Positions 14,151-64,000 of a stretch of DNA of 64,000 nt are shown here, one piece after another. The DNA lies in contig JBJBCN010000002.1 of assembly GCA_047285805.1 (NCBI GenBank), positions 864,001 through 928,000 on the forward strand. Direction: 5' to 3'. The stretch is from Synechococcus sp. (lineage in GTDB: Bacteria; Cyanobacteriota; Cyanobacteriia; PCC-6307; Cyanobiaceae). Every line of letters starts with the position of its first letter. Position 1 is the first letter of the stretch. A model generated the notes under the pieces. The model was not told the DNA's origin, did not search any database, and saw only the letters and a list, made by a program, of their open reading frames with translations. Both the position numbers and the translations under genes were made by a program.

Positions 14151-15068
14151 ATGGCAGATCAGTTGGTGCGCGCAACAGCGGCGGGTGGAGGTATCCGCCT
14201 GGTGGCTGTCAGCACCAGCACGACGGTTCGCTACGCCCGCCGCCGCCACAACCTCTCTTTCCTGACCACCGCGCTGCTGGGCCGGGCTATGACGGCGGGA
14301 CTACTGCTGGCCAGTTCCATGAAGATCAGTCATGGACGTGTGAACCTGCGGATCTCCTCCGATGGCCCCCTAAAGGGCTTGATGGTTGATGCCGGACGGG
14401 ATGGGACCGTCCGCGGCTATGTCGGGGCTCCGGACCTGGAACTCGATCTGGTGGACAGCGCCGATGGGACCCATCAGTTCGACTTCAAGCAGGCCACCGG
14501 CACCGGCTATATCCACGTCGTTCGGGACCTCGGGGAAGGGGAACCCTTCAGCTCGACCGTCGAACTTGTCAGCGGCGGCATCGGTGATGACGTCGCCTCT
14601 TACCTGCTGCACTCCGAGCAAACCCCATCGGCGGTCTTTGTGGGGGAGCGCATCGACAGCACGGGTGTGAGGCACGCCGGTGGCGTGCTGGTGCAGGTGC
14701 TTCCCAAGGCCGCCCGCGAACCAGCCCTGGTGGCGCTGCTGGAGGAACGCTGCCGCGAAATCGAGCACTTCAGTGACTGCCTCGCCGCCTGCGAAGGCAA
14801 CCTCGAAGCCCTGCTCCAGGACATCTTCCCTGACCTTGATCCCAAACTACTCGAGGACGCCGAGGCCAGCCAAGACATCAACTTCCACTGCCCCTGCAGC
14901 CGCAAGCGCAGCGTGAATGCCCTCAAACTCCTGGGCCGAGAAGAGCTTTCGCAGATGCTCAGCGAAGACGGAAATGCGGAACTCACCTGCCATTTCTGCA
15001 ACGAGGTCTATGACATCCAGGCCACAGAGCTGCAGGAGCTTATCGACGAGCTGTCCACAGCCACCTAG
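14151..15068 (+). CDS. hslO: Hsp33 redox-regulated chaperone
   Basis: 'ALLGRAMTA', 'DGPLKG', 'YL..SEQTPS', zinc motif 'CPCS...CHFC'. Confidence 0.95.
14977..15068 (+). repeat. Direct repeat copy 1 (attL-like; 3' end of hslO)
   Basis: 92 bp matching 25101-25194 with 8 substitutions and a 2-bp indel by manual alignment. Confidence 0.9.
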
Positions 15069-15151
15069 AGGGTTCTGAAGGATTGCGTACTAGCGATCCA
15101 GAATCGAAAAGAACGACAAGACTGGCAGATTAATCCACAACTAGGCCACTG

Positions 15152-24361: not shown

Positions 24362-25100
24362 ATGTGTGTAAATCTGTAAGTGCTCGCCGAATGCAGACAC
24401 GACTCAAATAAAAGAGTGCCGTTCGCCTTTATGTGTAAGCAGAGCCACTCCCCTAGGGATAGCCAATCGGGAAATCCCCCCAGTAGAAGGTCCTCTCCTG
24501 CCAGGTTAAGTGCCATGGAGGGCCCCTCTTACATCGATCTTTCTTGCTTCTCAGCGGCAAAGTCGCTGGTGAACCATACGACCAATTACGGCCGCCTGAT
24601 AGACCTCAAGGCAATAAATAGAAAGCCAGTCAAAAGAGCCCGTAGTGATAACTATACAGACGGGGACTGGCGCACGTACAAATAAAGCCGCGCAATCAAG
24701 TTCTAACCGTGGTTAAGCCCGGTTAATAGTCGCGCCCGCCCATACACCGATTAATCCTGTTCACTGAGAGAGCTAGATCGAGCATTGACCTGCTCTTCAC
24801 GAAGCGCGTTGGTCGAACCACGCAACTGAGCTATACAGCCGCCAGGAGTCCGACAGGCAAAAGCGAGAGGCCTACAAGGACCAGAGCCACCCCAGTGCCA
24901 GGTGAGTGGATGTTGGCAGTGAACCAGGACCTCTGGGCCATTGCTGTCGTCACTTCCACCACTTTGATAGCAATTGCGGCTGATAGTCGAATTTTTCTGT
25001 CTGCGGCGCCGTGACTTAGGCGACTGACGCAGTAATTAGGCCACTTCTAGGCCACCTTGACTCTCTAAGGCTTCACGAATCCAGTACACAAAGGGCAATT

Positions 25101-25194
25101 CGGAACTCACCTGCCATTTCTGTAACGAGAGGTCTATGACGTCTAGGCCGCAGAGCTGCAGGAGCTCGTCGACGAGCTGTCCCCAGCCACCTAA
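25101..25194 (+). repeat. Direct repeat copy 2 (attR-like; displaced, degenerate hslO 3' end)
   Basis: CGGAACTCACCTGCCATTTCTG...GAGCTGTCCCCAGCCACCTAA; encodes ELTCHFCNE, then a 2-bp insertion. Confidence 0.9.
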
Positions 25195-25273
25195 CGGCTG
25201 AAGAAGTGTCCTCAGGCCATCACTAGACACGCTCGCCCGGAGCTGTAACAAGGTTGTTCTGCAGGTGCTGGCG

Positions 25274-49632: not shown

Positions 49633-50828
49633 CCCGACCGCCCTGCTTCATCGTTGTCGGAGCGGGACCCGCTGGGTTGAGCCTGGCCCTGCAGCTGGCC
49701 GAAGGCGGAACCAAGGTCACGCTGATCGAAGCCAGTGACCGCTTCAGCCGACAGTTCCGCGGCGAAGCCCTGATGCCCAGCGGCCAGGAGGCCCTGGCCC
49801 ACATGGGAGTACTGGCGATGCTGGAGGACCTCCCACAGCGGCCCTTGGAGGGATGGAGCGTCTGGCTGGAGCGCCGATGCCTGTTCCGCGTCGCCGAACC
49901 CATGGGCTCCTTGATGCCCTGCACCCTGGTGCCCCAAGATGCACTTCTAGAGGCACTGCTCGAGAGGGCGCGGCGCTGCTCGACCCTGCAGTGGCAGCCG
50001 GGGCAAGCCGTCAGACAGCTACTGAAGCGGGGGACACGCATCAGCGGCGTCGAACTCAGCAGCGGCGAGCAACAAGAGGCCGACCTGGTCATCGGCTGCG
50101 ATGGACGCGGATCCCTACTGCGTCAACAGGCCGGAATCCAGCTCAAGCGCTTGGGCAAGCCGCTGGAGCTGCTCTGGTTTGAGCTGCCCGGACCGATCCC
50201 CAAGGACTGCGTCTGGGGATTTCAAACCCTGGTGGCGGGAGGGAGGATCGGCAGTGCCTGCCTGAACGCCTCAGGTCACCTACAACTGGCCTGGTTGATC
50301 AAGCCAGGGGAGGAGCGGGACAACCTCTCTTCTGGGGAGTGGGGGCTGCGGCTGGCCAACCTGGCACCCGCCCCCCTGGCGCAGTTGCTGATCGAGCGTG
50401 GAGCAGGCCTGGGTGCACCCGTGCGCTTCAAGGTGCAGGTGGGCATGGCAGAGCGTTGGCAGAAACCCGGCCTGCTCCTCCTTGGCGACGCCGCCCACCC
50501 GATGAGTCCGATTCGCGCCCAGGGGATCAACTTGGCGCTGCGGGACAGCGTGGTTGCAGCCGAGGCCCTACTTGCCGGCGGAGACGTGGAAATCGCGTCG
50601 ACGACGATCGAGCAGCAACGGCGACCCGAGGTGCGCCGTTTGCAGAAGCTCCAAGAAGCCGAGGCTCGCCAGGGGCATCTGATTGGCTATAGCAACGCTC
50701 TGCGCTATGGACTCACGCTGACCCGTGGATGGATGGGCCCCCTCGCCCAAAGGGTCTGGCTGGCCAGACAAGGCCCCCTCAGAGATGGACTTCCCGAGCA
50801 GCTGCCAAAGCCGTGGGTCGAGCCGTAA
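49629..50828 (+). CDS. FAD-dependent oxidoreductase/monooxygenase
   Basis: 'VGAGPAG', 'FRGE', 'GCDGR', 'GDAAHPMSPIRAQGINLALRD'. Confidence 0.88.
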   Translation: MTRPPCFIVVGAGPAGLSLALQLAEGGTKVTLIEASDRFSRQFRGEALMPSGQEALAHMGVLAMLEDLPQRPLEGWSVWLERRCLFRVAEPMGSLMPCTLVPQDALLEALLERARRCSTLQWQPGQAVRQLLKRGTRISGVELSSGEQQEADLVIGCDGRGSLLRQQAGIQLKRLGKPLELLWFELPGPIPKDCVWGFQTLVAGGRIGSACLNASGHLQLAWLIKPGEERDNLSSGEWGLRLANLAPAPLAQLLIERGAGLGAPVRFKVQVGMAERWQKPGLLLLGDAAHPMSPIRAQGINLALRDSVVAAEALLAGGDVEIASTTIEQQRRPEVRRLQKLQEAEARQGHLIGYSNALRYGLTLTRGWMGPLAQRVWLARQGPLRDGLPEQLPKPWVEP

Positions 50829-50912
50829 ACCTCATGTTGAACGACGTGACTTAGCAAGAAGACAGGCCTGAAGGGAAGAGCCAGGGGCAGACCGCAAGAT
50901 CGAGCACGTCCT

Positions 50913-51914
50913 CTATTTCCAGCCGTTATCAACCATCAGTTTGAGTGCCGGCTTGAGCTGTTTCGCAAGATCGCTAATGGCAACACCATCTGGCTCAAGC
51001 TCGCCGTAATCCTTCAGCTTTTCAGAGGTGCCATAACCAACAAGAGGGTATTCAAAAGTTGAGCGAGCTAATGAGGCGCTACCACGCCTCGAAGTCAAAT
51101 ACTCAACCAGCCGGAAACTTTCAACGAGATTCTTTGCCGTCTTCGCGACTCCTACAGCACTGATATTTATATGCGCAGGCAAAGGAATAGTCAAGGCAAC
51201 GTCACGGGTCAATTCAGCATCTCTTGCACCATTTCCACCAGCCTGCATTCGCGCCATGTAGTAATGGTTGACCACGGCAACCCCACAATTGCCCTGAGCA
51301 ACAGCACGAATCAACGAAGTATCACTCGAGAAGAATGGCTGGGACACATTGGCAATCATTCCCTTGATCCACTGTTGTGTTGAAGCCTGTCCAAACAAAG
51401 CAATTTGACCGGCCACGAGAGATTGATTGTAGACATTTGCACGCTTTCTTAGGCATAACTCGCCCTTCAAACGAGGAGAGGATAGATCCCTGTATTGGCG
51501 AATCGAACTAGAATCAACGCGTTGCGTGTTAGAGACAATCGCTCTAACACGACGAGTTACACCAAACCATCGACCAGCGGGATCCCTGAAATTCGCAGGA
51601 ACTTGACGGCGAAGGACCTCTGAGCTCAAAGGCCTCAAGAGGTCCTGATCAGCTGCAGATTGAATCCGGGCAGCATCAACCAAAATAATGACATCTGCTT
51701 GGGAACGTTCGCCCTCGCGCTTGAGGCGTTCAACGAGCGACACACCTTTTGCCTCAAGAAGACGAACTCGAATGCCAGTCTCCTTGGTAAAAGCTTTATA
51801 AACCTTCCGATCCGAGTTGTAATGGCGTCCTGAGTAGACGCGAACCTCAGAGGCCCTCGAAGCGACGGGAAAGACAGACACAAGAGCAATAAGGGCCAAC
51901 ATGTATCGCCGCAT
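50913..51914 (-). CDS. futA: Fe(III) ABC substrate-binding protein (FutA/IdiA family)
   Basis: Signal peptide; 'VYSGRHY', 'ADV...VDA', 'YNQSLVA', 'VNHYY', 'HINIS', 'FEYP'. Confidence 0.85.
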   Translation of the reverse strand: MRRYMLALIALVSVFPVASRASEVRVYSGRHYNSDRKVYKAFTKETGIRVRLLEAKGVSLVERLKREGERSQADVIILVDAARIQSAADQDLLRPLSSEVLRRQVPANFRDPAGRWFGVTRRVRAIVSNTQRVDSSSIRQYRDLSSPRLKGELCLRKRANVYNQSLVAGQIALFGQASTQQWIKGMIANVSQPFFSSDTSLIRAVAQGNCGVAVVNHYYMARMQAGGNGARDAELTRDVALTIPLPAHINISAVGVAKTAKNLVESFRLVEYLTSRRGSASLARSTFEYPLVGYGTSEKLKDYGELEPDGVAISDLAKQLKPALKLMVDNGWK

Positions 51915-52032
51915 TGAAGTCAAGCCAAGGGACATATTTTACTTGAGCCAAGACTGCTCAGGTCCCTTGGAGCAACTGGCACCTCTCGGCATCCATAGAA
52001 TTGATTGCAGCTCATCCTTAACGGAAAGCGCA

Positions 52033-52701
52033 ATGGAAGCTCTAAGGACAGAACTGATCTCAGGCGGTGAAGCGAGGCGCTTGGAGCAGGAACTGATTCA
52101 GCAGCAGCAGGAGGACTGGAGAGATGGCTCACTCACTGCAGGACCTCACGCGGCCGAGGTCAAGAAGAACAAGCAAATGCATCCAGAGAGTGGTGCTTCA
52201 AAAAAGTTGTGCCGCTTTCTCCAAGAGAAGCTGGCATCAAATCCATTAACACAGGCTTATGCGATTCCAAAGCGGATTCACAGCATGATGTTTTCCAGAT
52301 CAGAGGTTGGGGACGGCTATGGATGGCATGTTGACAATCCATTTACCTCCTCAGGAAGACGAGACCTGTCGTTCACGATCGCCTTGAGTGATCCAGAAAG
52401 CTATCGAGGTGGTGAGCTCGAGATCCAATCCATTCAATCCCAAACCTCATTTGAGCTGGAACTCGGAGAAATCGTGATTTATCCCAGCTCATCCCTTCAC
52501 CGAGTCAAGACAGTGAGCAGCGGAATTAGGCACGTCTGCATCGGATGGATCGAAAGCTACGTCAAGTCGGCGGAAGATCGTCAAATCCTATTTTCTTTAA
52601 ATGCAGGGGCAAAGGGACTCCTTGCAAAGCATGGGAGGAGTGAAGAACTCGATCTTGTGTTTCAGGCTTACACCAATGCTCTACGAAGACTTTCAAGCTG
52701 A
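52033..52701 (+). CDS. Fe(II)/2-oxoglutarate dioxygenase (PiuC/YbiX/PKHD-type)
   Basis: 'W.DG..TAG', 'VK.N.Q', 'YGWHVDN', 'DLSFT..LSDP..Y.GGEL', 'YPSSSLHRV', 'WIESYV'. Confidence 0.9.
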   Translation: MEALRTELISGGEARRLEQELIQQQQEDWRDGSLTAGPHAAEVKKNKQMHPESGASKKLCRFLQEKLASNPLTQAYAIPKRIHSMMFSRSEVGDGYGWHVDNPFTSSGRRDLSFTIALSDPESYRGGELEIQSIQSQTSFELELGEIVIYPSSSLHRVKTVSSGIRHVCIGWIESYVKSAEDRQILFSLNAGAKGLLAKHGRSEELDLVFQAYTNALRRLSS

Positions 52702-52770
52702 TAGTACTGTGTTTACAGGGGCTCTTTATGGGTCAGAAAGTCCTATAATTGAGTCAAACCAATTACCCAA

Positions 52771-53001
52771 ATGAAAAGATCCCCTGCTGCAATTCTTTTG
52801 GCGGCGACAGCAGCTCTTTCGACCCAGGCAGCCATTCCTGCATTCTCCCAGTCTTCGCCTCAAGGAGGCTTTCAAGAGTGGACGACTGACCAAGAAGTTG
52901 ATGATGAGGCCAAGCCAGATGCTGAGCTAAAAGCTTTCAAGGAGAAAGCCGAGCAAGAAGAGGTTTGTGTGCCGATTGGAGAAGGTGAGAATTGTTGGTA
53001 G
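52771..53001 (+). CDS. Small secreted acidic protein ending 'CVPIGEGENCW'
   Basis: Signal peptide plus C-terminal two-Cys motif; located in the iron cluster. Confidence 0.7.
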   Translation: MKRSPAAILLAATAALSTQAAIPAFSQSSPQGGFQEWTTDQEVDDEAKPDAELKAFKEKAEQEEVCVPIGEGENCW

Positions 53002-53046
53002 TTCTTACTTCTGAAGCCCTCCTAGCCGAGGGCTGTTTATGGCAAT

Positions 53047-53072
53047 AAAAAAGGCCTCCTTTCGGAGGCCAG
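53047..53072 (-). terminator. Intrinsic terminator after the minus-strand porin
   Basis: GGCCTCC-TTTC-GGAGGCC hairpin with an A6 tract on the plus strand (U-tail on the minus strand). Confidence 0.75.
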
Positions 53073-53086
53073 TGATTCTGTGAGGG

Positions 53087-54697
53087 TCAGAATTTGAAGG
53101 TGGTCTTGACCAAAGCGCCAAGGGCGCCGAATGAATCAGCACCAGTTCCGCCGTAGGTATCGTTCGTGCCAGTCAGCTCACCGAAGGGGCGAGACAGGTA
53201 ATAGACAGCAGGAGTAACAGTGACGTTGTCAGACACTGCGTATTGGTAATAGAGCTCCATTGCGTAATTCCCGTCTTGGGGAGTTGTGTTGCCGGAGCGT
53301 CCTGTCTCAAACTGAGGCTGACCGATGGCAAAGCCTAGAAGGTTGCCCTTAACGAAAGCATCTTTCCATCCCAAGCCAACCATCCAGTCCTGAGTCTGGA
53401 ATTTTTCACCAGTACCGAATTCGGTTTCGGAGCTGTCAAAGGCAGTCAAACCCCAGCCTGCGCTGACTGCAGGAATCCAGCCACGGTTCTGAGGTTGCCA
53501 CCAGGCATTCAGAGCAACGGCATTTGCCGAATCAAATCCGCGTGATACGGATGTGTTGCCGCTCCCCACAACAGTGGTATTTGCACCGAGCGGTGTGCCG
53601 TAGCCGACAGTCGCACCCTTCTGGATGTAGGCATAGGCAGCAGTCAGGTTCCAAAAGTTGGTGCCATATCCAGCTTGAGCTAAGAATTTTCCTTTGGACT
53701 GATCTGTGCCAATACCACCATTACCATTGCCACCATTTTTCGCTGTGTAGTTTGCACTTACGCTAAAGCGTGGCATCCCACTTCCTTTGTAGGCTTGCTT
53801 CCAGCTGACACCGGCTCCAGGTGATGTGCTCGCGCCATAAACTCCGTAGTAACCGCCAAGCTTGAACTGTTTGAGGATGGGTCGATAAACACTGGGTGTG
53901 CTGCCCAGCATGTAGTAATTCTCGATCAGTGGTCCAACCCAGACCTTGAGCTCATTGCCAACTGGGAATTGATACCAGAGCTTGTCGACCTTAAGGATGT
54001 TGCCAGTCTCCTTGGCAACATTGAGCATTGTTTGGTTGCCTGTGTAGCCCTTGCCCGAGAAGAAGTTTTTGTTGAAGTTGCCAGACCGCAGTCTGGTGTA
54101 AAGGAGGTCTTTGCCCGTAAAGCTTGTATCGAGATTTAGGGTCAAGCGGTAGTTGAACGTGACAACATCTTGACCGGTGTACTTACCACTGGATGTTGTC
54201 AGACCTGAGGTATCACCCGTGTAGGCCCCCCCACCAACGACAAAATCAGCCTTGCCGCGTAACTTGGTAGTAGTGGAGAACTGAGTAGCTTCCAGTTCGC
54301 CGACGCGGGCCTCGAGGCCATCAACGCGGCCGCGGAGCACAGCCAGCTCACGCTCGAATTCCTTCATCAGGCGCTTGAGCTCGTCAGTCACCTCAGTGAT
54401 CCGGTCGAGGCAAGCGTTCAGCAGTGCGGCCGCTTCATAGCGGGTCATCGCACGGTTGCCGCGATAGGTGCCGTTGGGGTAACCAGCGACGCAGCCGTAG
54501 CGCTCGATCAGGTTGCTCAGTGCCTGATAAGCCCAGTCGGTGGGCTGCACGTCGGAGAACTGGGTGATCGAAGTCACCTGCTCTTCGACGCCGTACTGGC
54601 TCAGGCCAGCAATGTTGACGTCAGCGGCGTTTGAAGCGACAGGAGCCAGAAGGCCCAGTGCTGCAGGCGCCAGAAGAAGCTTCTGGAACAGTTTCAT
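53087..54697 (-). CDS. som: Cyanobacterial SLH-domain porin (Som/'iron uptake porin' family), copy A
   Basis: Signal peptide, SLH 'FSDVQPTDWAYQAL', coiled coil, 'QFSTTTKL', 'SFTGKDLL', terminal 'KTTFKF'. Confidence 0.93.
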   Translation of the reverse strand: MKLFQKLLLAPAALGLLAPVASNAADVNIAGLSQYGVEEQVTSITQFSDVQPTDWAYQALSNLIERYGCVAGYPNGTYRGNRAMTRYEAAALLNACLDRITEVTDELKRLMKEFERELAVLRGRVDGLEARVGELEATQFSTTTKLRGKADFVVGGGAYTGDTSGLTTSSGKYTGQDVVTFNYRLTLNLDTSFTGKDLLYTRLRSGNFNKNFFSGKGYTGNQTMLNVAKETGNILKVDKLWYQFPVGNELKVWVGPLIENYYMLGSTPSVYRPILKQFKLGGYYGVYGASTSPGAGVSWKQAYKGSGMPRFSVSANYTAKNGGNGNGGIGTDQSKGKFLAQAGYGTNFWNLTAAYAYIQKGATVGYGTPLGANTTVVGSGNTSVSRGFDSANAVALNAWWQPQNRGWIPAVSAGWGLTAFDSSETEFGTGEKFQTQDWMVGLGWKDAFVKGNLLGFAIGQPQFETGRSGNTTPQDGNYAMELYYQYAVSDNVTVTPAVYYLSRPFGELTGTNDTYGGTGADSFGALGALVKTTFKF

Positions 54698-54719
54698 TGG
54701 TCCTCACACCAATAGAGGA
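54288..54719 (-). repeat. Inverted repeat arm 1 (porin 5'UTR plus N-terminal coding region)
   Basis: Reverse complement matches 62826-63257 over 432 bp with 4 mismatches by manual comparison. Confidence 0.92.
54701..54710 (-). promoter_or_regulatory. Yfr1 sRNA seed-complementary site in porin A 5'UTR
   Basis: GGTGTGAGGA just 5' of the ATG, complementary to the Yfr1 motif ACUCCUCACAC. Confidence 0.7.
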
Positions 54720-55009
54720 GCCCTTACCAAAGCCGCTCGGACCCTATCCAAGCGGCGACTGAGGCAGCCCGCCAATAGGCACCAGGACACGTCGCAAATG
54801 TCACAGGCAGGCCTTAGGGAGAAGCGGCCAGATCAAGCCTTGAAGAAAAACAAGAAGACTCTCTATAGATCAGAGAGAAGATATTTAGAGGGACAGAAAC
54901 AAGAGCAAATACTCAGACCACAGATGGTATTGAGTGATACATTCAAGATGGACATAAGCGAGCCGACGCTTTCCATCCCCGTAAGAAGCCCAAGTAACCC
55001 AATAATTCC

Positions 55010-55216
55010 ATGGAAAAACGTCTTCTCAACCTCCGCGAGTCCCGCGACGTCCTACAACAACAACGCAGGAGAATTCGCGAAGAAAACCTGGCCAAAAACG
55101 CTTCCAGAATTTCAAAGCCCATCTCACTGTTTCAAGAAACAAGAGCCACATCCAAAAACACCGGGGTGATTCGGATCCTCAACCGCGTGGTTGCCAAGCT
55201 CACAAAAAGGCACTAG
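55010..55216 (+). CDS. Hypothetical basic protein (68 aa)
   Basis: ATG ORF only. Confidence 0.35.
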   Translation: MEKRLLNLRESRDVLQQQRRRIREENLAKNASRISKPISLFQETRATSKNTGVIRILNRVVAKLTKRH

Positions 55217-55493
55217 GTCGCCCAACCCACGTTGCAGTTGGGCCAAGAAAAAAGGCCAAGCACCGGCCCGACCTCTCCTCGCCAGAACCGAAGTCCCGCG
55301 CAGCACGTAGTTAGGACTGGCGACAGAAGAAATCGAAAGCAAACAGGCCGATCCAACACAATGCAGCTGAGAGCCAAAGGGCTCTCGCAATTCACAGGCA
55401 TCGAGAAGGTGATGCAGCCGCAATCAGTTGTGCCCCAGGCGACACCACTGATCATCCTGGCTTGCGAACACTGTGGTCAATCTGAACCCACAA

Positions 55494-56414
55494 ATGGGCT
55501 TTCCTGCCTTTGTTGCTCTACTGCTGCACTTCGCATAGGGGCTGCTGCTGAGCCGTATCCGCTTCTGCATGGTGGGGACTGTTGGCCAAGCCCTCCTGGG
55601 CGAATGGGCTGATACACAAGCCACCTTGATCATCTGCTCAATGATCACCGGTGTGCAGCTGCTCGCCGGGCTCGCCGAACACCGCCTCTTGGAGCATACG
55701 GCGCTCCATTGCATGTGCTCGCAGGAGGCCTGCTGTTTGGTGTCACAGCGGTCTAGAACAAAGGGTGCTTTGTCGTCACGAGTATTCAGCTGATGGCTGG
55801 CGACCTGCGCGGTTTGATCAGCGTGGCGGGCTGGATCCTGGGTTTTCGCCTCCTCGGCTCCCCCATGGTGGTACCCGCCCTGCCTTCGAGTGATGGCCGA
55901 GCCTTCATCACATTGACTGTCCTGGTGATTCCTCTGCTGGTTCTGCTGTGGAGAAACCGGCTGCGGTCATCCGCAGGCCTCCAGAAGCAAAGGTGGACTG
56001 GCGATCCTCCGTCCTTTGCAGCGTGATGTTGGGTTTGCTTGATAAGAACCTCTGGAAGTGGAATCCATCAGCCGTTGCCATGGCCCTGTCTCAACCCATG
56101 GCCCTCTTGTAGGCCTGGCAACAGGGGCAGGGGCATGTGGTCTTTGGCTTGATGCTCTTGGTCGGAATGCTTGCTAACGCGCTCATTCAACGGCGTTGGC
56201 GCTGGAGAGCGGTCGACTGGCGAGTCGACCCCGCCTTGGCTACAGCATGGCCATCGGGGCCGTCCCCGCTATGGGAGGCGATGAAACTCAATTGTTGCGG
56301 TACCTGCCCAATGGCTCGCCTAAAGGTTGGCTGGCCGTTCCAGCCATGGTGGTTGGAATCGTCGCGGGATTCAGATTGCTGAAGAGCTCAACATCAAACA
56401 GAACTGAGGCCTGA
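55494..56414 (+). pseudogene. YeeE/YedE (sulfur-compound transporter) family pseudogene
   Basis: 'FA*GLLLSRIRFCMVG', 'AGGLLFGV.AV*N', 'GCF....QLMAGDLRGL', 'MAIGA..AMGGDE.QLL..LP..SP' spread across frames with stops. Confidence 0.7.
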
Positions 56415-56655
56415 CAGCAACCGGCAGCGTAGCCATCGTGAGCCCAATAGTCTGATGCTCGATGGGAAAAGCTTCTGATCTGCGCTGTCGCCCTGATGGC
56501 CTTAGCCCCGTCCATCGCATGGAGAGGCAACGTGGACATCAACGAGTTCACCAATTAGCTAAATAAGGACCGACAAACAGAGCTGAACGCTTGCCGGGAA
56601 GAGCCATTGTCAGAGGATCAAGAAATCGATCCGGCCTGCTGGCACTAACGACCAT

Positions 56656-56685
56656 AAAAAAGCCGGCCTTTGGGCCGGCTTTTTT
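56656..56685. terminator. Bidirectional intrinsic terminator downstream of glnN
   Basis: AAAAAAGCCGGCC-TTTG-GGCCGGCTTTTTT. Confidence 0.85.
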
Positions 56686-56722
56686 GCGATCAAGGGATGC
56701 TGACTCGCCACAGGCTCGTCGC

Positions 56723-58891
<2,169 letters not shown>

Positions 58892-59245
58892 GGCCACTTT
58901 GGTATCAGTGTGACACCATCATCGGGGACGGCCTGCCAGCTAGCGCAGGGTGCGCCAGTCGCCAGTGGGCGTACGGCGCTCAAGGCCCACAAACTGGCTC
59001 ATCAATTGCTCCTGCCGCTCGACGGGGAATGCCGGATCGATCAGGCCCTGATGGACCAGCCAAGCCAATGCGGTGCTCTGGGCCAGCTCATGCTCTGAAA
59101 CAAATCATGAGCACTGGATGGGGCTCGCCGACTCGATGCGTCAGCCGGAATTCCACGGTGAAAGGACTCAAGAGGGTGATGGCTCCAAGCGTCGCCGCAA
59201 CGGCAGATCAGTGCAGCAACGCAGAACACAGCCGCGCGTGTCCCG

Positions 59246-59938
59246 CTAACTCAGCTCAAAGAGCAGCAGATCCACTCCCTCCGCTCCAGCCTCAAGGGAA
59301 GGCAGGGCCTTGCCGGCCAAGAGGCCCAGGCCATCGCCGCGGCTCAGGGGCTGAGGGGCCGCCAGGCCGCCGTTGATGATCTGAATCCAACTGGCGCATC
59401 GTTCGGAGGCCGGCCAAGGCAGTTGGGTTCCGGCTTCCACCTGCGCCCGCCAGAGCCGCACGGGCCGATGGATCGCCATCGCCTCGCCAATGGCTTCGGG
59501 ATCAATCAGAGGTGTCCAGCCCTGCTGCAGAGCGAAAGGTTTCTGTTCGTAGGCAGGGTCAATGCCGGCTGTGGCCGGTTCGATCCAGATCTGCAGCAGA
59601 CGGCAAGGGGCTTTCCCGCCGTTGAGCTCGCTGTGGACCACGCCAGTGCCGGCACTCATACGCTGCACTTCGCCAGCGCGCAGCACCTCGGCGTGGCCCA
59701 TGGAGTCGCGGTGGTGCAACTCTCCCTCGACCATCACCGTGATGATCTCCATATCCCGGTGCGGGTGCATGCCGAACCCCTTGCCCGCGGCAATCACGTC
59801 GTCGTTAATGACGCGCAGGGGACCAAAGCCCATCCAAGCCGGGTCGTAGTGGCTCGAGAAGGAGAAGCTGTGCCAGCTGTCGAGCCAATCGAGCTGGCTG
59901 TGAAAACGCTCAGCTGCAGGGCGCAACAGCGGGGGCAT
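59246..59938 (-). CDS. Pirin family protein (YhhW-like)
   Basis: 'WLDSWHSFSF', 'GFGMHPHRDMEIIT', 'QRMSAGTGVVHSE', 'LQIWI'. Confidence 0.92.
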   Translation of the reverse strand: MPPLLRPAAERFHSQLDWLDSWHSFSFSSHYDPAWMGFGPLRVINDDVIAAGKGFGMHPHRDMEIITVMVEGELHHRDSMGHAEVLRAGEVQRMSAGTGVVHSELNGGKAPCRLLQIWIEPATAGIDPAYEQKPFALQQGWTPLIDPEAIGEAMAIHRPVRLWRAQVEAGTQLPWPASERCASWIQIINGGLAAPQPLSRGDGLGLLAGKALPSLEAGAEGVDLLLFELS

Positions 59939-60447
59939 TACTGGGGGGCTTGAAGCGTCTGCAGTCTGGTGAGCAGATCCGCAATGCTGTCGTCCTTGGC
60001 CGGGTGGTTGGCGTTGCTGACCAGCTGACGGCCAACGACGTGGGAGCCCAAGTGCGCCAGCTGGAGGCGCAGGGCGGTCATGACCATGGTGCCACCACCG
60101 CCGGAGTGGGTGGCGATGACCACCGGCCGGCCATTGAAGAGAGTACGGAAGTCACTTCCCTGGACCGAGAGCCAAGCGATGGCGCTGGTGAGCACCGGCG
60201 GAATCGAGCCGTTGTATTCCGGGGCGCAGATCACCCAGCGAGAGGTATCCATGAGCTTCTGCTGGATAGCAGCCAAAGCCGCCGGAGTGCCCTGCTCCTG
60301 GGCCCGCGGCGTAAACAGCGGCAGATCAACAGCGGTCAGGTCCAGCACCTCAGCGCTGCGGCCTTGGCTTCGGGCGGTCGCCGCAAAGCGTTCCGCCAAC
60401 TTGAGGTTTTCCCCGTTGCTCGCGGCCAGGACGAGAAGGTCAGCCAT
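59938..60447 (-). CDS. NADPH-dependent FMN reductase
   Basis: 'APEYNGSIPPVL.SAIAWLS', 'THSGGGG'. Confidence 0.88.
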   Translation of the reverse strand: MADLLVLAASNGENLKLAERFAATARSQGRSAEVLDLTAVDLPLFTPRAQEQGTPAALAAIQQKLMDTSRWVICAPEYNGSIPPVLTSAIAWLSVQGSDFRTLFNGRPVVIATHSGGGGTMVMTALRLQLAHLGSHVVGRQLVSNANHPAKDDSIADLLTRLQTLQAPQ

Positions 60448-61673
60448 TACTTCACACCAGGGATAAAGCGACGCTCGTGGTCACCGCCCTTGAGCATCCG
60501 GTTCCAATAGACCCAGGGCAACACCGCGGTCTTCATGACCCACATGCTCCAGCGTTCCTTGGTGGGATCCAGGGGGAAGGAGGGAACGGGCTGCTGCTGG
60601 TAGTTGAACTCGGCCATGATCGTCTTGCCGTAACCGGTGATCAGCGGGCAGCAGCTGTAACCGTCGTAGGAACCCTGACCCTGGCCACCCTCGAGCTGGG
60701 CGATCAGGTTGGTCACTAGAACCGGGGCCTGACCGCGAACCGCGGCGGCGGTCTTGGAGTTGGGCATTCCGCTGACATCGCCAATGGCGAAGACGTTCGG
60801 GAAACGAACATGTTGGAGGTTGTGCTTACCCACCTCGACAAAACCACTGGAGGCAGCCAGGGGGCTTTGGGCGACGACGTCGGGGGCCGTCATCGGCGGG
60901 GTGACGTGCAGAAGCGCGTAGTTGATGACTTCCTCGCGGGGCTCTTCACCTTCTTTGCTGACCTTGAAGACCGCCTCTTTGCTGTCGGGACGGACTTCGA
61001 TCAGGGTGTGGGAGTAGCGGGCATCAATGCCCTTCCGCGCGACCACCTCCCGCAGGGGTACCGCATAGGTCGGAACCCCAAAGATTCCTGGGGTGGCCGT
61101 GGCGTAGATGACCTTGCTCTTGGCGGCGATCGCTGGATCGCGATTGATGGCGTCGACGGCCAGATAGGCGATCTTTTGGGGCGCCCCGGGGCACTTGATT
61201 GGCATCGGCGCGCAGGTGAAGACCGCGTTACCGCCCTTGAAGTTCTGGATGCACTCCCAGGTGTAAGCCGCGAAATCCTTGGAGTAGTTGCTGCAGACCC
61301 CGCCTTTGCCCAGGGCATCCGGGAGGCCCTTGATGGCATCCCATTTGAGCTTCATGCCGGTGGCCACGACGAGCGCGTCGTAGCTGATGGTTTGGCCGCT
61401 GCTCGTGCTGACGCGGTTGCTCTCAGGCGCGAAACCTGCCACGGACTCACGGATCCAGGTGACGCCAGCGGGGATCAGGCTGGCCTCATTTCGGTGGGTC
61501 TGCTCGAGGCTGAAGACCCCGCTACCCACCAGGGTCCAACCCGGTTGGTAGTAGTGATCGCTCGAGGGCTCAAGGATGGCGATATCCAAGGCCGGACGGG
61601 CTTTCTTGAGGCGAGCTGCCACCGTGATTCCGGCGGCACCGCCGCCTACGATCAATACCTGGTAGTGGCGCAT
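60447..61673 (-). CDS. sqr: Sulfide:quinone oxidoreductase (type II-like)
   Basis: 'GGGAAG', 'HYYQPGWTLVG', 'VCSNY', 'IKCPGAPQKI', 'SKTAAAV', 'YDGYSCCPL', 'AEFNY'. Confidence 0.85.
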   Translation of the reverse strand: MRHYQVLIVGGGAAGITVAARLKKARPALDIAILEPSSDHYYQPGWTLVGSGVFSLEQTHRNEASLIPAGVTWIRESVAGFAPESNRVSTSSGQTISYDALVVATGMKLKWDAIKGLPDALGKGGVCSNYSKDFAAYTWECIQNFKGGNAVFTCAPMPIKCPGAPQKIAYLAVDAINRDPAIAAKSKVIYATATPGIFGVPTYAVPLREVVARKGIDARYSHTLIEVRPDSKEAVFKVSKEGEEPREEVINYALLHVTPPMTAPDVVAQSPLAASSGFVEVGKHNLQHVRFPNVFAIGDVSGMPNSKTAAAVRGQAPVLVTNLIAQLEGGQGQGSYDGYSCCPLITGYGKTIMAEFNYQQQPVPSFPLDPTKERWSMWVMKTAVLPWVYWNRMLKGGDHERRFIPGVK

Positions 61674-61959
61674 GGCCGCCGAAAGAAGACGCGCTTATCC
61701 CAGATCTAACCAGAGGGGGCGAACTCGGCAGCCCTGCTTCGGGATTCAAAGCCGCAATAGATAAATCAGTAATGAGTCCAAGCGGCCGAGACCTAAGCGG
61801 AAATGCCCATTCAGCTTCTCTTACGCATAACGATTTCGACTTGACACCCATTGTTTCTGGGGTCGATGCAAGATCGATGGACCACGACAACTTGCAGAAC
61901 CTCGAAGCGAGCCCAGGTAGCGACCCGTGGTCCTATGCAGTGAGCTTCAGTGAAATCAA

Positions 61960-62547
61960 CTACTCGCCGGCGCCGTTGATTTCGATCACCCAGCTGCCCA
62001 GGTAGCCCGAGATCGGAACTGCACCAGGGGCCTGACCGAGGGCGTTGAACTGATACATCCCAGCGCTCGGGTTGAAGATCTGCATGTAGACGCCGATGGT
62101 GGACCCGGTCGGCACAGGCCGATCGGGGAAGATCTCAATCGAAGTGCCATCGGGGGTGACCTCCACAGTCGCCGGAATCGTCTCAAGACAACGGGTCCTC
62201 GAGACAACGCCGCCCTTCTTGATCGTGCAAAGACTCACGTCTGAGGGGTTGATCTTGGCGTCGAAATAGGAGGGAACGGAAATCGCGAGCTTCAGCAGGG
62301 CGGTTTTGCGGTCTTTCGGACCCAACACCAAGTAGTAATCCGAGCGAGCTTCCGCATCCGCCAGAGTCAAGAAGTAGTAAAGCTTCCTGAATTCGCGAGA
62401 GTTATCCCAACGAAACTCGAAGCCCGAGCTCGAGCCTGCCTGCGCGTAAGCGACTGGTGCTGACAAGGGAGCTGCCAGTGCCAAGCAAAACGTCGAGAGC
62501 GGCAGCAGACGTTTGATCAACTGGGTGGGGCTATTACGCATGGCCAA
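61960..62547 (-). CDS. DUF2808-family exported protein
   Basis: Signal peptide; 'FEFRWD...FRKLYY', 'EIFPD.PVP', 'NP..GMYQFN', 'YLGSW'. Confidence 0.8.
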   Translation of the reverse strand: MAMRNSPTQLIKRLLPLSTFCLALAAPLSAPVAYAQAGSSSGFEFRWDNSREFRKLYYFLTLADAEARSDYYLVLGPKDRKTALLKLAISVPSYFDAKINPSDVSLCTIKKGGVVSRTRCLETIPATVEVTPDGTSIEIFPDRPVPTGSTIGVYMQIFNPSAGMYQFNALGQAPGAVPISGYLGSWVIEINGAGE

Positions 62548-62665
62548 ACTTTATCGAGTGAAGCCCCATCCCAATCCAGGACAGCCGATCAACTGACTGG
62601 AGAAGAGAGTAGATCGCCTCAACAACAAGGAAGACGACCAAGGGATTGGAACGGGGTCCTACCAA

Positions 62666-62709
62666 CAGTTAAAGGGCGGTTAAGAGCGCTTAAACAAACA
62701 TTTAAGACC
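62666..62709. promoter_or_regulatory. Pho-box-like TTAA repeats between DUF2808 and porin B
   Basis: TTAA at 62669, 62680, 62690 and 62702; minus strand reads CTTAACCG-ccc-TTTAACTG (PyTTAAPyPy, 11-bp period). Confidence 0.4.
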
Positions 62710-62825
62710 CGCAATAGCGAGAACCAGTATGTATGCAGGCACACAATCTGCATACAGCCATGATTACCGAATGGTAATTTTTCGGCAGCTAATTTTCAGC
62801 TGACTCTTTTTTAAGTCGTCCCAAT

Positions 62826-63257
62826 TCCTCTATTGGTGTGAGGACCAATGAAACTGTTCCAGAAGCTTCTTCTGGCGCCTGCAGCTCTGGGCCTTCTGGC
62901 TCCTGTTGCTGCAAACGCCGCTGACGTCAACATTGCTGGCCTGAGCCAGTACGGCGTCGAAGAGCAGGTTACTTCGATCACCCAGTTCTCCGACGTGCAG
63001 CCCACCGACTGGGCTTATCAGGCACTGAGCAACCTGATCGAGCGCTACGGCTGCGTCGCTGGTTACCCCAACGGCACCTATCGCGGCAACCGTGCGATGA
63101 CCCGCTATGAAGCGGCCGCACTGCTGAACGCTTGCCTCGACCGGATCACTGAGGTGACTGACGAGCTCAAGCGCCTGATGAAGGAATTCGAGCGTGAGCT
63201 GGCTGTGCTCCGCGGCCGCGTTGATGGCCTCGAGGCCCGCGTCGGCGAACTGGAAGC
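62826..63257 (+). repeat. Inverted repeat arm 2 (porin 5'UTR plus N-terminal coding region)
   Basis: Matches the reverse complement of 54288-54719. Confidence 0.92.
62835..62844 (+). promoter_or_regulatory. Yfr1 sRNA seed-complementary site in porin B 5'UTR
   Basis: GGTGTGAGGA just 5' of ATG 62848. Confidence 0.7.
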
Positions 63258-64000
63258 CACCCAGTTCTCCACCACCACCAAGCTCCAAGGCGACTACTAC
63301 TGGGCCCTGGGCGGCGTCACCGCAACCGGCGGCAGCAGCAACAGCACCGGCACCGGCACCGGCAGCCGCGACTACTACAACGCTAACTATGCGGCGTTGC
63401 ACATGGTCTACGACGCCCGTCTGAACCTCAAGACGAGCTTCACCGGCAAGGACCTGCTGTACACCCGCCTGCGCGCAGGCAACTTCGACGACAGCCCCTT
63501 TGATGGCAACGGCTTCAAGCTGACCAAGTTCGACAAGGCTGAAGCCACTGAGAACATCATCAAGGTCAGCCGTCTCTATTACCGCTTCCCCGTCGGTAAA
63601 GAGTTCAAAATCGCCGTTGGCCCCATTGCTCGTAACACCGAGTTCCTGGGTACCAAGCCCTTCTATTACAAGGGTTGGTCTGGTCTGGACTTCTTCCAGC
63701 TGAACGGCGCTCCTGGCACCTACAACAAGATCACCGGCAGCCTGCTGGGTGCGATCTGGAAGCAGAAAGTGAAGAAGGGCCAGCCCTACTTCACCGCCTC
63801 AACCAGCTACGTCACCCCCAAAGGCTCCAACGGCAGCCCTGAGTCGGGTGGTATCGCCACCAAGTTCAGCAAGTCGAGCTGGCTGACCCAGCTGGCCTAC
63901 AACCAGAAGCAGTGGAAAGCCACCTTCGGCTGGAACTACACCCAGTGCGGCAACAAAGCTCGCAGCGGCACACAGGCCTCTGTCCAATCTCAGGCATGTG
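62848..64000 (+). CDS. som: Cyanobacterial SLH-domain porin (Som family), copy B; runs off the window and is absent from the ORF track
   Basis: ATG 62848: MKLFQKLLLAPAALG...FSDVQPTDWAYQAL...QFSTTTKLQGD...SFTGKDLLYTRLR; open to the window end. Confidence 0.92.
   Translation, partial: MKLFQKLLLAPAALGLLAPVAANAADVNIAGLSQYGVEEQVTSITQFSDVQPTDWAYQALSNLIERYGCVAGYPNGTYRGNRAMTRYEAAALLNACLDRITEVTDELKRLMKEFERELAVLRGRVDGLEARVGELEATQFSTTTKLQGDYYWALGGVTATGGSSNSTGTGTGSRDYYNANYAALHMVYDARLNLKTSFTGKDLLYTRLRAGNFDDSPFDGNGFKLTKFDKAEATENIIKVSRLYYRFPVGKEFKIAVGPIARNTEFLGTKPFYYKGWSGLDFFQLNGAPGTYNKITGSLLGAIWKQKVKKGQPYFTASTSYVTPKGSNGSPESGGIATKFSKSSWLTQLAYNQKQWKATFGWNYTQCGNKARSGTQASVQSQAC

Follow-up and report, generated by a model that had tools for sequence, protein, structure and literature searches.

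In this study, we analyzed a 64,000-nt stretch of DNA (hereafter the window) from the genome of a Synechococcus sp. (G000; 2.37 Mb in three contigs), in which two porin genes face each other across a segment of about 8.1 kb and have their 5' ends in common as an inverted repeat. Porin A (53087..54697, minus strand; 536 aa) was assigned to the SLH-OprB/por_somb family by family profiles and, by sequence comparison, is a near-identical copy of A2, another porin gene of the same genome (G000:C2:1325523). Porin B (62848..64000, plus strand; 557 aa, continuing to window-equivalent 64521) also matched the por_somb profile, and locus comparison revealed an orthologue at the same site in G023, a complete genome of the same genus that is about 92% identical, and in G049. 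The arms of the repeat (arm A, 54288..54719, minus strand; arm B, 62826..63257, plus strand) each span -22 to +410 relative to the ATG and correspond to a 5' module of the porins: 22 nt with the ribosome-binding site (RBS), the signal peptide, the SLH domain and a coiled coil (codons 1-137). The segment between them (54720..62825), which could be flipped by a crossover, comprises an insert (55311-56715), a glutamine synthetase III gene (56723-58897) and genes for a pirin, an FMN reductase, a sulfide:quinone reductase-like protein and a DUF2808 protein; it was found on one 8166-nt contig in each of three read runs (X1-X3).

The initial annotation of this DNA had described a ~99% identical inverted repeat of 432 bp with four differences, reaching from -22 to about codon 137, and had suggested that a crossover between its arms would regenerate two intact porins and thus act as an inversion switch. 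The repeat and its geometry were reproduced. The arms are 432 bp long, differ only at +39, +60, +64 and +123 from the ATG and include 287 nt of perfect identity. A repeat finder stretched them to 466 nt at 97% identity, separated by 8106 nt, and scattered matches continued to about +435; the next-longest inverted repeat in the window is only 38 nt at 76%. From +411 (codon 137) the identity breaks up within EATQFSTTTKL, where an abrupt loss had been reported, and protein identity of the barrels is 40%. A crossover would yield two open frames, of 557 and 536 aa. No invertase had been noticed; likewise, no match to the recombinase families PF00589 and PF00239 was found within 290 kb, and recA is present in the genome. 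Thus, facing genes with common 5' DNA surround a segment and would stay intact after a crossover, as in an inversion switch, but with no linked recombinase and a repeat made of 432 nt of coding DNA the locus does not resemble a site-specific inverton.

Further examination of the genome revealed that the repeat is not private to this pair. Five SLH-OprB (SomB-type) porin genes could be identified in G000: A, B, A2, C (C2:378659) and D (C3:805316). All five carry the 5' module, which stops just before the first barrel strand; three more copies of the repeat had thus been overlooked. A, B, C and D scored 274-302 bits against NCBIfam NF033921 (por_somb; cut-off 100). In porin A, a PF00395 match at residues 47-90 is followed by a coiled coil, and the C-terminal porin barrel ends in Phe. 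In SLH domain, stalk and porin barrel these porins are like the known SomA/SomB-type porins (NF033921; PF00395 plus PF04966). The closest solved sequence is OmpM1 of Veillonella (8BYM) and the top fold match is OprB (4GEY). In an AlphaFold model of porin A (mean pLDDT 81; alignment of 54 sequences), the stalk is helical up to residue 136, with the first strand from 143 on; thus, the identity between A and B covers the RBS, signal peptide, SLH domain and stalk and ends at the barrel. Over +1..+410, no difference separates A2 from D; A stands one nucleotide and B three from each of these two, and A and B are four apart, whereas C differs from the other four by 21-23 nt. The module of porin A therefore has its nearest matches at a distance of 400 kb or on another contig, not in its neighbour B. 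A and B are, on the other hand, the only close and inverted pair among the five.

The initial annotation had noted that such identity might reflect an assembly collapse of paralogs, and one might likewise suspect the second copy of porin A to be an artefact. We examined contigs from runs X1-X3, which are possibly the source of this DNA. Unique parts of the block have a depth of 581, 510 and 987 in the three runs, and barrel A has about 2.4 times and the module about 4.4-4.5 times that depth. Although contig depth is not equal to copy number, these values fit two copies of barrel A and five of the module, which argues against a collapse. Separate contigs were found for both flanks of A and of A2, and the loose ends of the module contigs match the promoters of A2, C and D and the barrels of B and C/D. 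The module thus truly exists in several copies and does not stem from a merging of divergent genes. Single letters within the repeats are less certain. At window position 53553 the contigs of all three runs have a letter other than that of the assembly, and perhaps also at 54634; the +64 mismatch may be an assembly error, as the overlying listed contigs each carry another letter, one of them at about 2.7 times depth. The same module pattern recurs in 17 assemblies (see below), and an artefact appears extremely improbable. It should be noted that these short-word contigs break at the module, so that the orientation of the segment is not readable from them. Contigs of a further run, X4, come from a distant relative; one of them skips the insert at 55311-56715, and their lack of cover over the region of porin A (50813..54985) proves nothing.

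To characterize the evolution of the module, we compared porin paralogs in ten congeneric genomes (30 of 35 genes were used; two divergent and three partial genes were dropped) and in 17 Cyanobiaceae genomes (64 paralogs; three single-gene genomes were left out and not every paralog was fetched). In the first set, the median difference at four-fold sites of the module was 0.065 within genomes (36 pairs) and 0.235 between genomes (399 pairs), whereas the barrels were equally diverged within and between genomes (0.52 and 0.51). A comparison of 5' and 3' synonymous divergence had been recommended in the initial annotation for the som paralogs of this genome, and the outcome here favors gene conversion, the alternative mentioned there. 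In the second set, 54 of the 64 paralogs had their nearest module in their own genome, and the barrels followed orthology. The modules of one genome (G051) showed no differences among themselves but 113 to any other genome, with barrels only 27% identical; the corresponding numbers were 0 and 82 in G059 and 0 and 18 in G042. Phylogenetic trees of the two parts were in conflict: the modules of A, A2, B and D of G000 formed one clade (98/89), whereas the barrel tree united the B genes of different species, and likewise the A genes (100/100). Barrels of paralogs are 35-57% identical. Within-genome likeness of the modules thus extends to synonymous sites and disagrees with the history of the barrels, as in concerted evolution.

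Purifying selection on protein and codons could in principle keep the modules alike without any conversion. The module indeed diverges slowly between G000 and G023, and high abundance and stability of som transcripts have been described in Prochlorococcus (PMC2897979). However, in G000 as well as in G023 the module of A2 equals that of D, yet the two species differ at 14 codons, 11 of them synonymous. Selection on the protein cannot explain such species-specific synonymous states common to paralogs, nor does selection account well for 0 differences within against 82-113 between genomes. We consider selection alone to be very improbable.

On the basis of these results, the inverted repeat probably arose locally as a side product of segmental concerted evolution among the SLH-OprB (Som) porins. 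The modules are homogenised within genomes and the homogenisation ends at the stalk/barrel junction; we infer that RecA-type conversion is its cause. All paralogs would need the same periplasmic anchor, composed of signal peptide, SLH domain and coiled-coil stalk, and this protein constraint would keep the 5' modules alike enough for RecA-type, mostly non-crossover gene conversion, by which genome-specific variants could spread to the other copies. Beyond the stalk, the barrels would be too diverged to pair, and conversion would end there. In the present lineage, an iron-uptake cassette would have entered 8 kb away from porin B, oriented opposite to it, bringing two modules face to face by accident, and its porin, small open reading frame (ORF) and dioxygenase 3' end would have been overwritten by, or copied from, the A2 locus. 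Segmental concerted evolution of the 5' modules appears well supported by these comparisons for the family as a whole.

Several observations weigh against this explanation or limit it. Ten of the 64 paralogs were not closest to their own genome, including B in G023 and G049, which indicates patchy homogenisation. An AU test in which G000_B and G023_B were held together in the 5' tree did not reject this grouping (p 0.236). Between G000 and G023 the module differs at 3 of 56 four-fold sites, compared with 0.17-0.30 in seven neighbouring genes, and such slow change between species suggests that conversion is accompanied by selection on codons or by exchange between species. In the core module, B is 1 nt from its paralogs in G000 but 20-21 nt in G023 and G049, where A is not nearby. 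This hints that A and B recombine with each other, although A, A2 and D are identical over this stretch, so that the donor is not nameable, and only three genomes are involved. The comparison genomes all represent lineages other than the one with the A cassette, and none is conspecific. Finally, assemblers can flatten a few variants in repeats, and the identity may be slightly overstated for that reason.

Porin A itself appears to be a recent acquisition. The flanks in G023 are collinear with the window, but two parts, 50813-54985 and 55311-56715, are missing there, and in G049 and a metagenome locus (L065) other DNA without a porin occupies the junction. The first part is a low-GC insert (50813..54985) identified by locus comparison. 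It contains a solute-binding protein gene (50913..51935, minus strand; Pfam and comparison) that shares 67% identity with its counterpart at A2 and that we take to be futA/idiA-like; an Fe2+-dependent dioxygenase gene of the PRK05467 family (51901..52701, plus strand; family profile and comparison), presumably piuC, intact here and broken at the A2 locus; a 76-aa ORF (52771..53001, plus strand) that is without a Pfam or NCBIfam family in profile searches but is conserved behind A-type porins according to locus comparison; and porin A with its upstream DNA. A terminator-like hairpin lies at 53053-53070, beside the 3' end of porin A. Pairwise comparison further showed that a tract of 2172 nt (52547..54718, minus strand), including the whole of porin A, the small ORF and the 3' end of the dioxygenase gene, is 99.6% identical to the A2 locus, and that this tract is as close to the A2 locus of G023 as A2's own flank is. 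Since the tract matches A2 while the binding protein is only 67% identical to the A2 copy, we infer that a foreign cassette was inserted and its porin end overwritten from A2, which would make porin A a recent, lineage-specific passenger. Its cassette context also suggests a role in iron uptake: of the 29 loci with an A-type barrel, which belong almost exclusively to marine Synechococcus and Prochlorococcus, 27 have dioxygenase and binding-protein genes downstream. Iron-responsive oprB-like porins have been reported in Synechococcus (PMC9723758, PMC12274634), and idiA, iron porins and piuC are treated together in PMC12274634.

Two other possibilities were considered and rejected. An inversion of the 407 kb between A and A2 does not agree with G023, which is collinear inside and outside this interval at the places compared. 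A phage donor of the module or porin is not indicated, as identity among the best 80 of 273 viral contigs does not exceed 87% in protein and 76% in DNA. All 273 encode a porin 5' module (the best 80 are L212-L291), and the family is thus widely carried by phages.

Some side observations concern this cassette and its site. The dioxygenase gene behind A2, which resembles piuC (L017:11523-11942), has frameshifts and stops, whereas in the window and in G023 the gene has an open frame; possibly the cassette in the window took its place. The site between the genes for a monooxygenase and glutamine synthetase III (window 50813-56715) holds different inserts, of 5.9 kb in G000, about 3 kb in G049 and L065 and almost none in G023, and is thus a small insertion hot spot. 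The second insert (55311-56715; 1.4 kb) has no homologue in the fetched loci and includes a short ORF with a Sulf_transp match below the cut-off, perhaps a gene remnant. Locus L154 contains a mosaic iron cassette whose barrel end is nearer to G000 (90% in DNA) than to G023 (79%) and whose downstream genes are nearer to G023. A third futA-like binding-protein gene (G000:C2:225649-226608) aligns in three frames, which suggests a frameshifted gene or an assembly error.

We then analyzed the upstream regions. Both promoters had initially been placed between the arms. For porin B this is supported: its upstream DNA is conserved, with TTAA(G) repeats at about 11-nt spacing (62667..62706, plus strand; invariant columns in six aligned upstream regions), presumably resembling a pho box, and B promoter and B-type barrel occur together in G023, G049, L063 and L064 (the last three probably one species). 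For porin A it is not: the 281 nt upstream have no homologue in any fetched locus, and a sigma-70 scan gave 1 site compared with 1.1 expected by chance. No convincing Fur-like boxes were found upstream of A, A2 or other A-type genes with the patterns used. Upstream of D, G000 and G023 have a GTA-N8-TAC box in common, which we assume to be of NtcA type, and porin C lies downstream of a cobalamin riboswitch and a ZupT gene. Based on such contexts and motifs, the paralogs probably serve different nutrient regulons, with A/A2 in an iron cassette, C in a cobalamin-riboswitch metal cluster, D behind an NtcA-type box and B behind a pho-box-like element. Homologous promoters were found in 16 of 371 cross-genome pairs (29 genes; 14 pairs at >=60% and two at 55-56%), and all 16 pairs belonged to the same barrel group; in a second, partly overlapping set (42 genes), all 13 such pairs also kept the barrel group. 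No promoter-barrel swap between species was thus present among the homologous-upstream pairs of either set, and promoters stay with their barrel types across the species compared.

These data bear directly on an adaptive, recombinase-free switch, in which a RecA-mediated crossover would flip the 8.1-kb segment at a relevant frequency and under selection and either swap the barrels of A and B between promoters or, if the DNA upstream of A is silent, turn B off. Such a switch would fit the intact products, a stretch of 287 nt without mismatch, the fact that no other two of the five copies are both close and inverted, a genome with recA but no recombinase within 290 kb, the lack of a homologue and of a promoter signal above chance in the DNA upstream of A, as might be expected of a silent copy, and the stronger homogenisation of B in G000 than in G023 and G049. 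However, A and B are less alike than A and A2, A and D or A2 and D; the module is present in five copies, and A is missing at this site in G023, G049 and L065, so that the A/B arrangement is young and lineage-specific rather than a dedicated pair. In addition, barrel A already exists at A2, so a flip would add no new surface; the pairing of promoters and barrels is stable across species; and the same module identity is found in genomes whose paralogs lie hundreds of kb apart in any orientation. The switch proposed initially is thus quite unlikely. A related scan of metagenome loci with the DUF2808 protein gave 66 loci, three of them with an adjoining porin module (two with B-type barrels and one contig ending in the module); none had an A-type barrel or porin A at the other end, and the scan is therefore no test of flipping in this lineage.

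A rare neutral inversion is a more reasonable possibility, although short of an even chance, and it is compatible with segmental concerted evolution. Some conversion events would be resolved as crossovers and flip the block in a minority of cells without any selected role. Homogenisation itself points to ectopic recombination among the modules, and a crossover between A and B would break no gene, being the only short and harmless one among the five copies. A comparable inversion of slp genes has been observed in 0.3% of chromosomes (PMC3666127). On the other hand, no inverted junction was seen among the contigs, which do not phase across the module, and the five block genes, if flipped, would leave the strand that GC skew weakly suggests is the leading one (skew -0.019).

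Comparison with known systems further helps to place the locus. In Campylobacter fetus, the sapA system has one promoter and clustered promoterless cassettes, and RecA-dependent inversion takes place between conserved 5' regions of the surface-protein homologues. In contrast, the five genes described here are dispersed and four of them have a distinct regulatory context of their own. In Lactobacillus acidophilus, slpA and slpB are facing genes about 6 kb apart with a common 5' stretch. The geometry of A and B resembles this one. In the small fraction of chromosomes mentioned above, inversion of a chromosomal segment brings the silent surface-protein gene under the active promoter (PMC3666127); no inversions were seen in 21 NCFM derivatives (PMC11697832). 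However, slpA/slpB is a fixed species trait with one silent gene, whereas A would be a recent passenger that duplicates A2. The babA/babB/babC genes of Helicobacter pylori are also dispersed outer-membrane paralogs that are exchanged by intragenomic homologous recombination, have shared ends and variable middles, and show chimeras and locus swaps commonly among isolates, tied to CT-repeat phase variation (PMC4552749). The porin modules would evolve in a similar manner, but only the 5' end is common in them and no promoter-barrel swap between species was found.

Our results may have consequences for the study of Som porins, which the most abundant marine phototrophs carry as major surface proteins. 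If each genome homogenises the 5' halves of its som genes, full-length trees, N-terminal dN/dS values, read mapping and quantitative PCR on these genes will mislead, and short-read and single-cell assemblies will break there; in fact, of 29 contigs carrying an A-type barrel, 10 stop no more than 150 nt ahead of it, as a repeat that disrupts assembly would predict. Two published findings may reflect this phenomenon, although it is not named there: an elevated N-terminal dN/dS of a Synechococcus porin (PMC3170327) and, in Prochlorococcus, a deletion of 2 kb that affects a porin and a riboswitch (PMC12379486). Paralog gene conversion as a mode of evolution is known from bab, and its segmental form in porin 5' modules, as suggested by our comparisons, was not found described in the literature searched. 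No paper was found on conversion among cyanobacterial porins, on within-genome identity of their 5' modules or on a phage-receptor role, in searches with partial literature coverage. A homogenised module could also offer new barrels a simple route to a native anchor and promoter. A bolder version, which we regard as unlikely, is a system of constant and variable regions: the genome-specific, universal module, held identical through conversion, would be a standing recombination handle, by which barrels would be acquired from foreign DNA, be lost between tandem copies or be joined anew to nutrient-specific promoters, with A/B reversible by inversion, which could shift surface loops under phage or nutrient selection. 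This is hinted at by the synonymous divergence of barrel A from G023 (0.63, compared with 0.17-0.30 in neighbouring genes), by its lower GC3 than that of its module, by the mosaic relation to L154 and by upstream DNA that is non-homologous between the A, A2 and G023 sites of the A-type barrel. A working inversion switch would be more striking, but is unsupported here.

Several additional features were observed among the porin loci and in the window. In three marine Synechococcus genomes (L126-L128, L134), the A-type porin directly follows the same upstream gene, which we take to be aroA-like; in L126, another porin stands between them, as if tandem copies were gained or lost via the common module. 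The second tandem porin of G023 (L016:9107) has ATC in place of the ATG start of the others, and its barrel is 95% identical to one in G049. At L018:4935-8216, the cobalamin riboswitch precedes a gene for a small membrane protein, then those for ZupT and porin C; a serine resolvase gene is located some 2 kb downstream, and porin C is thus a candidate cobalt/B12-regulated porin in a mobile island. Finally, a direct repeat of about 110 nt (14970-15080 and 25094-25206 of the window; 85-92% identity), whose copies are 10.1 kb apart, possibly marks the ends of an integrated element.

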